DNA of 32,000 nt. It comes from Actinomycetes bacterium. GTDB taxonomy: Bacteria; Actinomycetota; Actinomycetes; Mycobacteriales; Mycobacteriaceae. The notes below the pieces were generated by a model. That model did no database searches. It was not told where the DNA came from and saw only the letters and a program-made list of their open reading frames with translations. Location: assembly GCA_023460175.1 (NCBI GenBank), contig JAEWRC010000104.1:52470-84469 (forward strand). Reading direction: 5' to 3'. A program made the translations under genes and the position numbers. Each line of letters opens with the position of its first letter. Position 1 is the stretch's first letter. Shown piece by piece: positions 9,001 to 13,900 of this stretch.

Positions 9001-11463
9001 GCTGAGGCGCGGGCGCGCGCGAATGTCGCGTGGATGGCCCGGCTATCCGTCGCCGGCGCCGAGCAGGTGCGCACGTCGATAGCTGCGCTGATCGACGCCC
9101 ATCCGTTCGAGATCGGCAACGCCTGGGGTATCCCAGAGGAGTTCAGCAACAAGGCAATTCGCACGTGGCTAGAGCACAAACACGCCCGCGCCGATGAGCT
9201 GCGGTCCATCGGTCGGCGCCTGAAAAGAGGGCAACGCCAGTTTGTGGACAATGTGGACCAGGTTGAGGCCTGCCTCCGTGAAATCGATGAGGCCGTCGAG
9301 CGAGCTGGCCTGCTACCCGCGCGGTTGCTTGCGTTGGACCCTACGGAGTTTCGCGGCCCCACGGCACTTAGCGGTAACGGACGGGCCCTCATCGCGATCG
9401 GCGACGACCCGTACCGGGCGGAAAGGGTGTCGTGGCATATCGCCAGCGAGGGGATCGACCAGTTGGGGGAGAGTCTGATCAGCCCCGCGCTCGAGCAATT
9501 GCAGTTGGACCAACAGGAGACGGCGTCGGCGGCCGTCATCATCTGGGTCGGCAAGGGCTTTGCTGCTCGCCACGCGTTCTACACCGACCATGCGGCATTC
9601 CGTGCCGCCCGTGAGGCACTGGTAGAAATCGGTCCGTCCTGGCCGCCACTTTGGGGTGAGCGTGCGGTTGGGCGCTTCGCACTAGGCAACCTGAATGGCG
9701 ATGGCACTGCCGTAGATCCGCTGGACGGCAGTCCGGACGAGTCGGCCGCCGCCGACCACCTCGGCCACGTCAAGGGCCCCCAACCCGACGGTCGGCGCTT
9801 CCCGCGTGATGGCGACACCGCCGACGTCGACGTCGAAGGGCTACCGCTTTACGGAGAACCGATGGGCGTCGTGGATGAGGAAAGACCCGACATCACCGGG
9901 CCCGAGGTGCCGGGCACGGCGTTCACGCTGGCGGAAACGCCGAGTTCGCTTGACGTGGCCCAGGCGGTGGCGGACTTTACCCACGAGATGGCCGCGATGG
10001 GTGACGACGCCCCGGTGCGAGTGGTTCGCCGGGTCGGCGAGACGGGCCTGGTGGTGCGGTTGCCCGACGGGCAGGAGCGGTACCTGGAGTTCGATGTCGA
10101 TGAACTGGGCACCGATTCGGAGGGTCGTCGGTTGCTCGGGGTTACCACGCTAGGGCGTGGCGAAGCGGATCGGGTGACGCTGGATCGGCGGTCGGCGTCG
10201 GATCCGAACCCGGAAGTCGCGCGGACGCAGCGTGTCTGGCTGGTACTGCACGAGGTGAGTCACACTCTGCACGAGGTCGCGGCTGACCACCGGCAGGGAG
10301 TCGTCCGGCCCTGTCTGCGTGCCCGGACGGACGAACACGCCTACCTGTCGTTCAGGTACAACGCGGCCGACATCGAACAGCGCGCTTTCTACACTGAACA
10401 GCTCGAGGGCGTGCGGCGGGTCCTCCGGGATTTCGGCCAACCTGTCCCCACTCCGCCTTGGCAGGTCGTGGCGACCGAGCCGCCATCGTTCGTTTCCAGT
10501 GCCGGACTCCGTTCTCGGAGTTCCTTTGGTGACAGGTGGGAGCGGTCCATGGGGCGGGCGGAGGCGATGTTGTCCGCGGGTGGGCTGGAACTCGGCCCCC
10601 AGGGTTCGCCGGTGAACGAGCTAGCAGCCCTGCAGGCGAAAACCGAGGTCATCCAAGGACTGAGTGCGGCCATCGACCTATCGACCTATGACCTCGCAGA
10701 CCTGGCGGGCTACGCGGATAGGCCGGTGCTCGACGCCGCGAAGGCACTTGTGGCGGGCGATAAACAATTCTTGTTCAGACTCTTGGAAGAGGATCATCCT
10801 TCCAAGGGGTTTGTCTTCATCAAGTGCGGTATCTTCCGCAGCAAGGCGAGGGACGCTGAGGTTCACCTTTTAGGCCGCGATGATGCGGACAAGCTCATTC
10901 GGGAGCGCGCGATCTCCGTTCTCGTCGGGCAGTGGGCGATGTCCTCGAACGCGACGCCATTCTCTCACGCTTTCCAGGAGATGGCGGCGGAGGAGTTTGG
11001 TCCGACCGAGATCCATGCATGGCGATCGGCGAACTGGCAACGCGACCTGACCGACTCGCTGATCCGGGGTTGCGGACCGAGCGTCCGCCGCTTTCTGCGG
11101 ACGCAGTACGAGCTGACTCAGGACTACCTGAGGCGATGGGACATCGACACCCTTCTGCTGACGCGCGGGATGGGGTGGAGGACGTCGCTCGAAACTCCGC
11201 CGTGGGCAATGTTCGGCCATTCGGACGTGATCGATCTCCCGTTGCTCCGGCCGCTCTCTTCCTGGTCTGCTCACCCACGGGTGCCCAAGGAATTCACTGA
11301 CAGGTTTCCTTACAGTGTGGTCATCGGCATCGAGGTGCCTAGACGGGTCATTCTTTCGATGCCCCGAACCGGTATGGGCTGCCTCCACGAGTGGGAATTC
11401 GTGGTTCTCGCGAACAAAGGACGAGCCCGGCTACTGGAAACCAAACGAGGGGATGATGAGTGA
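1..11463 (+). CDS. Giant multidomain polymorphic-toxin-like protein (at least 3,820 aa visible; 5' end outside window)
   Basis: A single frame is open from nt 1, with no stop before the first in-window start (GTG 64), through to TGA 11461-11463. It contains the catalytic-motif-bearing modules listed as separate 'other' features. Every long ORF overlapping it on other frames or the opposite strand is low-complexity Arg/Pro/Ala-rich, typical of high-GC shadow ORFs. Confidence 0.9.
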   Translation, partial: RKAWGGLAQFHLLLSLREIDPVHRADYDLMLAPLSRELVFIGTIPPDEPPSDLGQAPVVGQLDDLVERARRLVPDVPNAERSGDLAAGARAEYLNYFGALDGAGFDSFGASLAAWQRLEQEQRQAWAAQSEDFPGIGGVVGREGVPARWQDAANRWRLVHRLRALYLTALVEPLSETDLAEMAALSDAVVQVEVLKDSAAVFDHRVPVYLVLFDPQTGVIGLSLGEPDVADSVVADVVDGFPWRSGSAGRYLAGLHAQRATNENTGSVASMLYYGQRLKAVRDQVDNHLRDRESTREFYNDRRPDLQQPPSAWQVQWHRYSDIAGDVAAVADRPLDVGQVLLPVLDPLRTAELNGHPLDCAQLGVRVVVGAGRDASIGDRPLWGREVAMGADGDWEPPGTYDSVAQIMGGLNDGDCAIVSIDRVDQALSPDDPVAHLIVVTHLFGLQLWLDPTQIKHEAPADHEELRAGRPIELAKHFKKYRDGDWDFSGRVQVDAIVFPGGEARRPLNGGQPAAGRGPRHPMGAELDGAPDPTPEQRFLKPDDVEDDSVEDRIVTGLVQLRDGGVENLDQELVSLTVDDSFDIGELYDRIAEHGLEADWALQDSPGGERISEKPVSDRRATIGAERDDPAHAGAHIERQRLGGVPFGDWSVILPDRIVVITPAGVTDSVMDDWVRQAVELNTAPGGSESDRLSVEYRRLRVDSAGNPVTEQRGADGEWVRTNEVLEPVAASAVPSGTLWKVADALAAQCLLVPPGIYAKSAAVGVVALFEAAAQVDRFDARIAENSATLDGLRRRAAAADAAPTAFSPEERRSLEAASRLHDTLRESRAQARTDWEQRAVRLSLDPPDMGDPATAPLPTELPALVAVADARISDVDNEIRRVESGLDELDRVGPHVQRPGAGDVDGQRATNRAQHDARRARRDALESELSDLRDQYQLEQETRAELAAAEASASTVPTDRSGPAGGGLLHRLARLQAVHGVTAAAARSEAADIENMLRTQADSHPDAAQRIGRHALIEQRLASIDTVVDNPVDRLSWRRRLADELSTFVAYGPNQLGALSSVGIPHLVMVADLSQSPETVSDRFRTLVQSHPELLAVARENTEVDVWLVDDDGTALRRTGTVQMTDTGVTMHIPDTGWQRSEDGVPAGPAVESPTDLGLTPRVIENADAPSAQEVRIAGPLVELLAGLVDRPERMYTRQLIAAAREAAARPDLPDTHFRAIDAVLTAYDTALGIDIAMSGVPTACLAAGDWPPAASTPHSESVHQTTQDANSVVEQSFPSDQRTPEPTPSPSVETQSTKTDDTDNSLSGRSVTDGAGERTLGSQNLGAAAAAVEVGTTGPEPSAVEGVSDVNEIVKGALEQREVSADDLVNPLGSAELAEVRARDNAAWWAGLSGAQRQVVTAAYPKQIGNAEGVFAADRDTANRIMLKRHRNTADRIQAKIDEGVRPSDGELKFLIRVNKLDTSLDAAAVAAEQAGVGRPLLLAFDPMEFGLDGRAVVSFGEDPYKAESVSWHVPGFTTTIDQLNGNMRNALNHLQSTLREKPGLSAASIAWIGYDAPNDSASWRVVGRKLARDGGEILYSDLRAFNAARDTWAGDGSRFTGNHIFGHSYGSAVTSYAGRDRRFGGLVDTVTLAGSPGAGPQQHARDFGIGVDNVYVASSSRDPVTALGGREPRSSGRIIGRGLGLDPAMKNFGAQRITSEFPDGMNTVGTFATHVSYYDPVTADGLVRTESLANCGRIAAGQPDRLHLEAHRTVDENPRRGPRLRTIEPAADRPLRLDAGTGVHHPRDLHNRIRLNPRWRSDNADEAQRVAAELSAVTEIDTSPDPQTADVAARSDTDAQDDRAMGDEALARRGVSADDLVNPLGSANLAAARARENALWWAMLTDVQRQALIKTYPRQIGNAEGVFAADRDTANRIMVQRYRNTADRIQAKIDEGVRPSDGELKMLIRMNKLDTSLDAAALAAERAGVGGPRLLAFDPLEFNRDGRAVVSFGEDPYKAESVSWYIPGLGTTIDKLDYAMHCALNTLQSTQYEDPILSAASIAWIGYDAPNDGHTWRGVGHKLARDGGEILYSDLHAFNAARDTWAGDGSRFTGHHIFGHSYGSVVTSYAGRDRRFGGLVDTVTLAGSPGAGPQQHARDFGMGVDNVYVVSSSRDPVTALGGREPRSSGRIIGRGLGLDPAMESFGAQRVTAEFPASMDRKDTTATHNAYFDFLQTDDPRRWLVTPDPAVRTESLANLGRIGAGGRPHLEAHRTLHIRPGRLFGSRVRTVEPAERHMLRHEDSDAQYPADRHVRHRWTPRWFVNNNCAHLVARELSAMYGREIHLVAAPARTGVPARALFEAVGSGSRFATYAEVAETLRQMLPGSSALLASSWGAGRQGGHAYLAVNVDGEIHLMDAHTGQRSGWPPHWGQDAVHRTAVGYLDANGDPVDRLDTHVDTRRALAAAGAVGHVQGHRDDADFARRQQKYRAQDPTTRWVDTRYAESLGEVVDNVVDSAGLRQLAEDLSGRYGPYCVRLESSGVDGEVFLAGEILWGGEQVGKLQRRFGRDTRGDLVAFHTGLNIDDTQFRGRGFSKAFAAELERYYMNSGVDRIETWTHGKGAYACARAGFTWDRDPVRLQKSLNSIKNGAERLAPRISDNAHAVLDHIVQRLDPEHPRLPELGDLADLAGPDEPHLGCRLLDGATVYAVKYLQGEPLSRSGFKAWLQRWIGLGGDRYGHAGKNCARLVASELSARYGRDIRLAVAPSRAGTPAWALFETVGSGARFATYAEVAETLRDMPSGSSAVLASRWSGGQSGGYAHLAVNDGGEIYHVDPHTGHRSGWPPHWGQTSVVRTAVGYLDASGDPVDSLRDVPLQLDLAAADAIGLVQALAPDFAQRQQEYRAQDVAAVAPPLEPNSAARHAGLSVEGALVDHDAELYTGDGGDVEVPLQLGVQQADALDQQGEPPAGPIGGEPPHNSGGPSDVDRVSAALDQRVAVMPTAELIDDVVHDLANAERAEARARANVAWMARLSVAGAEQVRTSIAALIDAHPFEIGNAWGIPEEFSNKAIRTWLEHKHARADELRSIGRRLKRGQRQFVDNVDQVEACLREIDEAVERAGLLPARLLALDPTEFRGPTALSGNGRALIAIGDDPYRAERVSWHIASEGIDQLGESLISPALEQLQLDQQETASAAVIIWVGKGFAARHAFYTDHAAFRAAREALVEIGPSWPPLWGERAVGRFALGNLNGDGTAVDPLDGSPDESAAADHLGHVKGPQPDGRRFPRDGDTADVDVEGLPLYGEPMGVVDEERPDITGPEVPGTAFTLAETPSSLDVAQAVADFTHEMAAMGDDAPVRVVRRVGETGLVVRLPDGQERYLEFDVDELGTDSEGRRLLGVTTLGRGEADRVTLDRRSASDPNPEVARTQRVWLVLHEVSHTLHEVAADHRQGVVRPCLRARTDEHAYLSFRYNAADIEQRAFYTEQLEGVRRVLRDFGQPVPTPPWQVVATEPPSFVSSAGLRSRSSFGDRWERSMGRAEAMLSAGGLELGPQGSPVNELAALQAKTEVIQGLSAAIDLSTYDLADLAGYADRPVLDAAKALVAGDKQFLFRLLEEDHPSKGFVFIKCGIFRSKARDAEVHLLGRDDADKLIRERAISVLVGQWAMSSNATPFSHAFQEMAAEEFGPTEIHAWRSANWQRDLTDSLIRGCGPSVRRFLRTQYELTQDYLRRWDIDTLLLTRGMGWRTSLETPPWAMFGHSDVIDLPLLRPLSSWSAHPRVPKEFTDRFPYSVVIGIEVPRRVILSMPRTGMGCLHEWEFVVLANKGRARLLETKRGDDE
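1060..1360 (+). other. Possible N-terminal papain-fold (Cys/His/Asp) module within giant ORF
   Basis: L-D-C-A-Q-L (Cys codon 1078-1080), then P-V-A-H-L-I-V-V-T (His 1306-1308), then L-W-L-D-P (Asp 1351-1353). The H..L.V....G..L.D spacing mirrors the two clearer modules at 6916-7320 and 8160-8570. This is pattern similarity only. Confidence 0.3.
3770..4080 (+). other. Ser/Thr/Pro/Glu-rich low-complexity linker within giant ORF
   Basis: The translation reads ...ASTPHSESVHQTTQDANSVVEQSFPSDQRTPEPTPSPSVETQSTKTDDTDNSLSGRS... It is locally less GC-rich than the flanks and lies directly upstream of the first hydrolase module. Confidence 0.6.
4090..5410 (+). other. Alpha/beta-hydrolase module 1 (GxSxG; DUF1023/Abhydrolase_8-like)
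   Basis: Nucleophile elbow F-G-H-S-Y-G-S (Ser codon 4831-4833), S-S-S-R-D-P (Asp 4993-4995) and A-T-H-V-S-Y (His 5149-5151), in the Ser-Asp-His order expected of an alpha/beta hydrolase. The family name is from memory and needs an HMM search. Confidence 0.7.
5569..6915 (+). other. Alpha/beta-hydrolase module 2 (tandem paralog of module 1)
   Basis: Same motifs as module 1, shifted by exactly 1479 nt for the Ser and Asp: Ser 6310-6312, Asp 6472-6474, His 6628-6630 (T-A-T-H-N-A-Y). Confidence 0.7.
6916..7320 (+). other. Papain-fold toxin module 1 (Tox-PL / glutamine-deamidase-like)
   Basis: N-N-N-C-A-H-L-V (Cys 6928-6930), G-G-H-A-Y-L-A-V-N (His 7153-7155) and I-H-L-M-D-A-H-T-G (Asp 7198-7200). 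The Cys...His...Asp order and spacing are typical of papain-like polymorphic-toxin domains. Confidence 0.6.
7530..7850 (+). other. GNAT-like (acetyltransferase-fold) module
   Basis: F-R-G-R-G-F-S-K-A-F-A-A-E-L-E (7711-7755) matches the GNAT motif A (R/Q-x-x-G-x-G/A). It is followed by ...G-A-Y-A-C-A-R-A-G-F-T-W, resembling the C-terminal ..A..Y.k.GF GNAT motif. Confidence 0.5.
8160..8570 (+). other. Papain-fold toxin module 2 (paralog of 6916-7320)
   Basis: G-K-N-C-A-R-L-V (Cys 8179-8181), G-G-Y-A-H-L-A-V-N (His 8410-8412, displaced two residues relative to module 1), I-Y-H-V-D-P-H-T-G (Asp 8449-8451). The shared G-W-P-P-H-W-G-Q...T-A-V-G-Y-L-D-A.G-D-P-V-D tail confirms paralogy. Confidence 0.6.
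8940..9620 (+). other. Truncated third copy of the hydrolase-module N-terminal half (no GxSxG)
   Basis: ...A-R-A-N-V-A-W-M-A-R-L-S...I-G-N-A-W-G-I...L-L-A-L-D-P-T-E-F...I-A-I-G-D-D-P-Y-R-A-E-R-V-S-W-H-I... aligns by eye with 4130-4700 of module 1. Similarity stops after I-I-W-V-G-K-G-F and no GHSYGS follows. Confidence 0.55.
9990..10440 (+). other. HExxH zincin-like metallopeptidase module
   Basis: W-L-V-L-H-E-V-S-H-T-L-H-E-V, with H-E-V-S-H at 10249-10263 and a further H-E four residues on. It lies about 300 residues upstream of the C-terminal toxin domain. Confidence 0.45.
10860..11460 (+). other. C-terminal ADP-ribosyltransferase-like toxin domain (R-S-ExE type)
   Basis: L-L-T-R-G (Arg 11164-11166), L-S-S-W-S (11257-11268) and H-E-W-E-F-V-V-L (E-W-E 11389-11397), in the order and spacing (about 31 and about 43 residues) of C2/C3/Vip2-like ARTs. 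The second Glu is 21 residues from the C-terminus. Confidence 0.6.

Positions 11464-13900: not shown

Follow-up and report, generated by a model that had tools for sequence, protein, structure and literature searches.

In Mycobacterium tuberculosis the secreted toxin CpnT has a C-terminal NAD-directed toxic domain and its immunity gene, IFT, lies directly downstream. In Staphylococcus aureus EsaG is the DUF600 immunity protein of the nuclease EsaD of the type VIIb secretion system, and among R-S-E ADP-ribosyltransferases (ARTs) dedicated antidotes occur in the DraT/DraG and Tre1/Tri1 pairs. Polymorphic toxin-immunity systems were delineated through genome comparisons (Zhang et al. 2012, PMC3482391); among those linked to type VII (ESX) secretion are WXG100-type polymorphic toxins encoded by M. 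abscessus prophages (PMC8092301). From phages, polyvalent proteins and virion effectors linked to MuF have also been described (Iyer et al. 2017, PMC5512222; Jamet et al. 2017, PMC5576092), the commonest ART family of polyvalent proteins being of the H-Y-D type and not R-S-E (PMC5512222). We analyzed a 32,000-nucleotide stretch of DNA from a member of the Mycobacteriaceae (contig JAEWRC010000104.1, positions 52,470 to 84,469; hereafter the window, numbered from its first letter), in which a giant toxin gene is followed by three co-directional open reading frames (ORF1 to ORF3). We consider it somewhat probable that the toxin is of the polymorphic type and adjoins an ESX-1-type locus, with two nested C-terminal cassettes in which ORF1 and ORF2 are the partners, and with ORF3 as an accessory linked to the toxin backbone.

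The locus type, a polymorphic toxin, is already known; here it comes with two uncatalogued partner families and an ART cassette shared with phages. The toxin gene (64..11463, + strand) is one continuous ORF of 3,799 amino acids (aa), in which Pfam recognized two Abhydrolase_8 domains (8.2e-46) and two papain-fold glutamine deamidase domains (Gln_amidase, 2.2e-17). In common with polymorphic toxin systems, the locus has a conserved backbone, a recombining C-terminal end and small downstream genes that change together with that end; the secretion genes nearby are a possible further likeness. Unlike the usual ones, it has two C-terminal modules and two partner genes in a nested arrangement, its partner families lie outside Pfam, NCBIfam, PHROGs and PADLOC, and a third, non-variable multi-domain gene follows. 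Unlike in WXG100-type polymorphic toxins, no WXG100 domain was detected in the toxin of the window (Pfam, E <= 0.01); the toxin orthologue of locus L005 has a WXG100_2 domain at its N-terminus. No usable match to the C-terminal end of the toxin was found in Pfam, NCBIfam, PHROGs or PADLOC.

The genes behind the toxin were compared between the window and the syntenic Mycolicibacterium loci L003/L004, L005, L114 and L115 (M. flavescens), each with a giant toxin and an ORF3 homologue. The toxin backbone (aa 1317-2868) was about 50% identical to the L003, L005 and L115 toxins, whereas aa ~3270-3799 had no counterpart in these, with marginal similarity at most; the L003 and L005 toxins share one C-terminal end and L115 has a third type. 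A conserved backbone with a variable toxin end was thus found among orthologous loci, and the genes between the toxin and ORF3 changed together with that end, namely a DUF7161 protein (81 aa) and a 79-aa ORF in L003/L004 (L003:9509-9996), a DUF7161 protein (83 aa) and a 73-aa ORF in L005 (L005:9493-9972), a DUF7161 protein (87 aa) and a 76-aa ORF in L114 (L114:9476-9972), a single 186-aa ORF in L115 (L115:9410-9970), and ORF1 and ORF2 in the window and in L197, a metagenomic relative with 80% DNA identity. Since the content of this slot varies with the toxin end while ORF3 is constant, ORF1 and ORF2 occupy the variable slot. An earlier note, made from the letters of the window, had taken the three ORFs for one immunity cassette whose homologues might co-vary with the toxin C-terminus; the co-variation held for ORF1 and ORF2 and failed for ORF3, which lies outside the variable cassette and is about 70% identical whatever the end. 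The pairs of DUF7161 (PF23720) with a 73-79-aa ORF, and the 186-aa ORF, probably represent further toxin-partner pairs; no mention of DUF7161 was found in the literature searched.

The last ~200 aa of the toxin (aa 3604-3799; 10873..11460, + strand) are predicted to form a DraT-like R-S-E ADP-ribosyltransferase. As in DraT, the domain presents Arg / Ser-x-Ser / Glu-x-Glu motifs in order, the Arg in LLTRGM (aa 3698-3703), LSSWS (3731-3735) and HEWEF (3775-3779); across the alignment three of these residues never vary, namely the Arg, the Ser that opens Ser-x-Ser and the Glu that closes Glu-x-Glu. A word-index search returned only two homologues, P0227 and P0228. Of these nearest relatives, P0227 (33% identical to the window domain) reaches the gathering score of the Pfam DRAT model (PF07357; 25.9 versus 25 bits), and P0228 matches the model with an E of 0.0094. 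The window domain itself had no direct Pfam match, and its sole match among PDB sequences was a weak one to the VIP2 ART (E 2.3), so that the assignment rests on transitive homology together with the motif. A mycobacterial toxin with a predicted C-terminal NAD-directed domain and a small gene directly 3' resembles CpnT-IFT, which the earlier note had cited as precedent. The likeness is one of layout and the comparison an analogy, as Pfam scans of the whole toxin and of its C-terminal end gave no TNT domain, no IFT-like sequence was found, and ORF1, ORF2 and ORF3 are without Pfam match.

ORF1 (11460..11717, + strand; 84 or 85 aa) is a candidate immunity or inhibitor partner of the ART domain. 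An exhaustive search yielded 36 representatives of its family, mostly of 71-108 aa, with the motif NEDWLRTRTWD...TTL...LPxW.AAP..LK, and the commonest form of ORF1-like sequence was a free-standing gene of 55-131 aa with its own stop codon. Relatives of the ART are encoded in 160 viral stretches (IMG/VR). In locus L086 the gene after P0228 is an ORF1 relative (BLASTP E 1e-8), and in L087 a 1,068-aa protein ending in the same ART subfamily (match to the window ART, E 1e-12) is overlapped at its end, by 4 nt, by an 82-aa ORF1 relative; further along come genes for proteins with HExxH and with Zeta toxin, and then those for MuF and a prohead protease. In an IMG/VR scan anchored on ORF1, an ART lay directly upstream in 25 of 26 loci; in the converse scan, a detectable ORF1-like domain was found 3' of the ART, usually within ~100 nt, for 44 of the 69 distinct ART domains having enough downstream sequence, and many of the remainder have 3' small ORFs with a divergent motif, NADWTKQxWDL...LPVY, recognized by eye. 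Taken together, the two scans indicate that ART-ORF1 adjacency is close to a rule.

Between the window and L197, in which the order is the same, amino acid identity was 83% for ORF1, 79% for ORF2 and 67% for the ART, so that the partners are better conserved than the enzyme. The tight, coupled adjacency and the better conservation of ORF1 relative to the ART argue for a physical interaction of the two, and inhibition would be the most economical role for ORF1 in a polymorphic toxin. Unlike DraG or Tri1, ORF1 is, with its ~80 aa, too small for an ADP-ribosylhydrolase, and if it is an antidote it must therefore act by binding. In phages the ART-ORF1 unit occurs in large proteins of several domains whose genes neighbor those for MuF and a prohead protease and for Zeta-toxin or HExxH effectors. 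This is like phage polyvalent proteins, and the phage ART/ORF1-like proteins fit the polyvalent virion-effector class (PMC5512222); unlike there, the unit in the window has become part of a giant toxin that is chromosomal and adjoins ESX-1.

Some further features of the phage relatives were noted. L087 is a phage-like JGI contig of 23 kb on which three consecutive large proteins, ending in ART, HExxH and Zeta toxin and with N-terminal regions similar by eye, lie just upstream of Phage_Mu_F and Peptidase_S78; the small ORF1-like gene follows only the ART protein. In L116, the cultured jumbo Bacillus phage SP-15, the 469-aa hypothetical protein SP15_258 contains an ART 30% identical to that of the window and is followed by a terminator, with no ORF1-like gene. 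A tblastn search of cultured phages likewise found distant ARTs and no ORF1 relatives. In L179 (L179:3042-3602) an ORF1-like N-terminus, NADWTKQTCDW, is fused to a region of ~120 aa with two H-x-T-L motifs which, by eye only, resembles a 2H phosphoesterase.

ORF2 (11724..12260, + strand; 177 aa from ATG 11727) is a Cys4 protein with 106 homologues, all unnamed, in Nonomuraea, Microbispora, Micromonospora, Kribbella, Actinoplanes, Nocardia and Streptomyces. Its Cys21, Cys23, Cys49 and Cys52 (CxC...CxxC) are invariant among 27 family members, and the AlphaFold2 (AF2) model (pLDDT 94.5, pTM 0.88) shows a zinc ribbon followed by a helical bundle. A search of this fold against PDB and BFVD gave no neighbor beyond zinc-ribbon pieces of ~40-55 residues, and a profile search of PDB sequences nothing significant. 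Relatives turned up in 278 species genomes when genomes were scanned, and 80 loci were kept for context. In about 70 of the 80 the ORF2 homologue starts -4 to +270 nt past a giant open frame that fills the whole 7-kb flank, and the giant proteins so encoded share with the window toxin only aa ~3230-3480. This region holds a module of ~125 aa without Pfam match (aa 3360-3473; 10141..10482, + strand), which has HEVSH (aa 3396-3400), QGVVR, DEHAYL and TPPW in the window and the hidden Markov model (HMM) consensus ..vlvHEisHvlQ..QGvvR..C..R.nEHahLsrkW..GhtPPxPPW. The HMM detected it in 76 of the 80 ORF2-anchored loci, the four misses having <1 kb of upstream sequence. ORF2 is thus firmly linked, by gene neighborhood, to the aa 3360-3473 module, of which it may be the antidote or the handler. 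A pairing of ORF2 with the ART was also considered and rejected, as ORF2 accompanies giant proteins in which the module is present and an ART is missing.

Among the Streptosporangiaceae giant ORFs of loci L006-L085, which exceed 2,300 aa (e.g. L047:12-7001 and L010:23-6838), three were scanned (L010, L047, L073) and contained no Pfam domain at all. In Microbispora two copies of the ~125-aa module lie about 6.4 kb apart, and many Nonomuraea giant-protein tails end in FWERMRRLANTTGW...CxCPx4CxCG(R/L)R. A tandem second, more divergent ORF2 paralogue was present in the sampled Streptosporangiaceae loci; the second tandem paralogue of a Nonomuraea-like locus (L198:1550-2089) lacks all four cysteines and keeps the C-terminal helical half. 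The ABC ATPase encoded downstream of ORF2 in Nonomuraea was uninformative.

In the window the order is module, ART, ORF1, ORF2, and in the reading that we favor ORF1 and ORF2 are the cognate partners, and probably the immunity proteins, of the two C-terminal modules. We propose an outer cassette in which the HExxH-containing module (aa 3360-3473) would be paired with ORF2, and an inner cassette, made up of the ART (aa 3604-3799) and ORF1, whose insertion would have separated the module from ORF2. The GC content of ART and ORF1 (0.617) is below that of the module, ORF2 and ORF3 (0.66-0.675), and the sequence FGDRWERSMGR just past the module resembles, by eye, the FWERMRR with which the tails of the giant proteins start. 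Together, the low GC of ART-ORF1 and this likeness suggest insertion of the ART-ORF1 cassette into an older module-ORF2 arrangement, and the GC difference fits a separate, later acquisition of ART-ORF1. From gene order, module co-occurrence, family conservation and predicted folds we infer binding and neutralization as follows. ORF1 would be made by translational coupling with the toxin and would bind the ART domain, holding it inactive in the producing cell; ORF2 would do likewise for the aa 3360-3473 module; and ORF3, in the role of an immunity or handling factor, would most likely bind to some part of the toxin that is conserved. The expectation of the earlier note, that a toxin with several enzymatic modules needs several immunity functions, fits the two C-terminal modules through these two pairings.

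ORF3 (12359..13900, + strand, alternative ATG at 12353; 513 aa) has >745 homologues, the best 120 being 65-78% identical over their full length and from Mycolicibacterium or Mycobacterium where a source is named. A homologue with ~70% identity follows the variable cassette in L003/L004, L005, L114 and L115. Its AF2 model (pLDDT 69.5) has four domains, aa 1-95, 144-265, 288-430 and 443-500, and the only PDB structures matched by Foldseek at E <0.001 were BH3703 (DUF600; 2ia1, 3i0t) and S. aureus EsaG (8guo, 8gup), with a probability of 1.0, E of 6.5e-5 to 3.8e-4 and 116-126 aligned columns. To judge by the order of secondary structures in the model, the matched region is probably aa 144-265. 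The N-terminus of ORF3 had been likened to a YrhB/Imm35-type immunity fold, which was not upheld, since neither the window protein nor 39 homologues matched Imm35 at E <= 1; the HMM check proposed alongside gave no SUKH or SMI1 match for these proteins either. With a DUF600 fold match and no Imm35 signal, ORF3 appears to hold an immunity-type fold other than the one first proposed, and on these structural grounds an immunity-like role is possible. PDB sequence searches with the ORF3 profile, or with domains 2 and 3 alone, gave nothing significant, and hhalign between the domains revealed no internal repeat. A domain with the predicted EsaG/DUF600 fold and an adjacent type VII secretion system recall EsaD-EsaG and YeeF-YezG. 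Unlike EsaG, ORF3 has 513 aa in about four domains, is constant across toxin ends and has no significant YezG-like sequence match, and unlike in EsaD, domain scans of the window toxin detected no nuclease domain. ORF3 behaves as part of the conserved backbone and not of the swappable end, and would be an immunity-like accessory.

Several findings weigh against the roles proposed for the three ORFs, and bear on other explanations. Known handling factors are EsaE and the small EsaD partner proteins, or EspG for PE/PPE proteins, and the small ORFs could be chaperones, adaptors or co-secreted partners that keep a giant substrate export-competent, and not antidotes, which we judge unlikely. ORF2 is found in a great many species of Nonomuraea, a distribution that recalls a fixed accessory more than it does a polymorphic immunity gene, and its position 3' of giant ORFs is fixed across very many Streptosporangiaceae species. 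Some members of the module family have a degenerate HE motif (HG, GD), and not all have its second His. The module can be internal and is present twice inside some giant proteins, so that it may not be a toxin domain. ORF3 for its part is conserved with the backbone and adjoins ESX-1 genes including EspG and EccA1, and EsaG-type proteins are reported to travel complexed with their toxin (PMC10653861). A handling role is harder to reconcile with the position of ORF1 and ORF2 in the very slot whose content changes with the toxin C-terminus, which is the immunity position in polymorphic toxins; with the tracking by ORF1 of an enzymatic ART domain in phages, which have no type VII secretion; and with tandem paralogue arrays, typical of immunity genes. 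Most module members, the one in the window (HEVSH) included, have an intact HE motif. The HExxH module is nevertheless at most a possible metallopeptidase, as not all members share the motif and it matches no known family. As to ORF3, we also considered that it is unrelated to the toxin, a conserved protein of the Mycolicibacterium ESX-1 flank that merely lies beside the variable cassette. Its ~70% identity irrespective of the C-terminus type, the 98-nt gap ahead of it in the window and the want of a significant sequence match to any immunity family agree with this, as does L197, where ORF3 is largely deleted, down to a remnant of its last ~30 codons (L197:1538-1788), while ART-ORF1-ORF2 is retained. 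The structural evidence for an immunity fold is itself qualified by the moderate quality of the model, by a target-normalized TM to EsaG/DUF600 of only 0.37-0.49, and by YezG-like (PF04634) matches that are weak, occur in 4 of 39 homologues (best E 0.096) and do not include the window protein. We nevertheless regard an unrelated ORF3 as quite improbable, given that it is directly 3' of the toxin cassette in all five contexts examined, that the preceding gap is only 4-30 nt in L003, L005, L114 and L115, that one of its domains matches the EsaG/DUF600 immunity fold, and that ORF3 stays while the genes further 3' differ between genomes.

For ORF1 the adverse findings come from its phage relatives. 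The ORF1-like domain also forms the N-terminus of larger proteins (232-805 aa) that carry Zeta toxin, ADPrib_exo_Tox, HNH, MuF-like or HExxH domains. In L090, L109 and P0256 it is in frame with the ART; both effector fusion and in-frame ART linkage are unusual for immunity proteins, and no need for immunity is known for virion-packaged phage ARTs. The distant ART homologue of phage SP-15 also lacks an ORF1-like partner. Given the effector fusions, ORF1 might be a hitch-hiking fragment, derived from an N-terminal docking or linker domain of whichever phage multi-domain effector is encoded after the ART, with its first ~80 codons brought in by recombination along with the ART and without a role in the mycobacterial locus, and the GC of ART and ORF1, below that of the surroundings, and the multi-domain virion effector framework of phages (PMC5512222) would be in line with such an origin. 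This is very unlikely in our view, considering that free-standing genes of 55-131 aa are the commonest form of the domain, that the identity of ORF1 between the window and L197 (83% versus 67% for the ART) argues for purifying selection on ORF1, and that the overlap of its start with the toxin stop fits translational coupling. A further explanation, which we advance tentatively, is that the ORF1-like domain is an unrecognized, widespread regulator of DraT-like ARTs and that an ART-regulator pair was captured whole by an ESX-linked mycobacterial toxin. Phages would then use the domain either for silencing, within the producing cell, an ART that is packaged in the virion, or for docking the next effector onto that ART. 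Such a role would account for the fusions with Zeta-toxin, HNH and HExxH effectors, and phage polyvalent effectors and bacterial polymorphic toxins would share a pool of enzyme-plus-inhibitor cassettes.

The arrangement that we favor, a polymorphic toxin with two nested cassettes, would provide two testable toxin-partner pairs in environmental mycobacteria, in which ESX-linked interbacterial toxins have been little studied. It comes with two protein families that Pfam, NCBIfam, PHROGs and PADLOC do not list, the ~80-aa ART partner and the Cys4 ORF2 family with its 278 actinomycete species genomes. That one ART-plus-partner unit is found both among the multi-domain effectors of phages and in a giant toxin encoded on a chromosome points to an exchange of cassettes between these two sorts of system. 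If ORF1 is a direct inhibitor of the ART, it would be a compact new type of inhibitor of R-S-E ADP-ribosyltransferases.

The three ORFs behind the toxin are all present on the + strand, as first described, and have the properties of genes. The toxin ends in GDDE-TGA with its stop codon at 11461-11463, and ORF1 does begin inside it, in GTGATGA at 11460-11466, either at GTG 11460 (a 4-nt GTGA overlap with the toxin stop) or at ATG 11463 (a 1-nt overlap); public gene calls accordingly give it 84 or 85 aa. Its own stop codon (11715-11717) is followed by GGAGGAG (11718-11724), the strong Shine-Dalgarno sequence ascribed to ORF2. The 7-nt gap given between ORF1 and ORF2 needs correction, being 6 nt with a GTG start at 11724 or 9 nt with ATG 11727. 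The Cys4 pattern of ORF2 was read correctly, and its length, given as 178 aa, is 177 aa in the public record, from the ATG; ORF3, described as a 515-aa protein, is a genuine gene that public calls start at ATG 12359, with GGAAGGA 7 nt upstream of that ATG, for 513 aa, 98 nt after ORF2. All three have a coding-type composition (GC3 0.72-0.80 versus GC2 0.47-0.52) and conserved homologues (36 representatives, 106 and >745, respectively). No usable match to any of them was found in Pfam, NCBIfam, PHROGs or PADLOC, nor any Pfam match to SUKH/SMI1-KNR4 families. As no promoter-like or terminator-like site was found between the toxin end and the ORF3 stop, co-transcription of toxin, ORF1, ORF2 and ORF3 is plausible.

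The window is 100% identical to the ENA metagenome scaffold LEMO22-1 scaffold_40 across all aligned parts, and the nearest named homologues of its proteins are from Mycobacterium and Mycolicibacterium. Window positions 4813-6500, which fall where the toxin has its unit of Abhydrolase_8 and glutamine deamidase in duplicate, are absent from the otherwise identical public scaffold L001; with this break the public assembly cuts the giant gene into smaller and spurious calls. The toxin locus adjoins the flank of an ESX-1-type locus. Downstream of ORF3 are genes for a WhiB protein, an alpha/beta hydrolase and a TetR regulator, and beyond the latter three genes of the - strand, for EspG, PPE and PE, and two of the + strand, for EccA1 and a ParA-like ATPase, with EspG, PPE, PE and EccA1 all within 13 kb.

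The genes from ORF3 to EspG/PPE/PE differ wholly between the window (13901-19400) and L003 (L003:11641-17667), and neither the small ORFs of L003 nor its genes 3' of ORF3 were found in the window. In the window the interval between ORF3 and EspG holds the WhiB gene (14262-14657, - strand), an Abhydrolase_3 protein and the TetR regulator. In L003, L114 and L115, ORF3 is followed by a WXG100_2 protein of 308-318 aa; the opposite strand then encodes a protein of 573-594 aa, another of 103-106 aa, an ACP_syn_III-like protein, a second EspG-like protein and two ORFs of ~90 aa, the last with a weak WXG100 match in L003 and L114.

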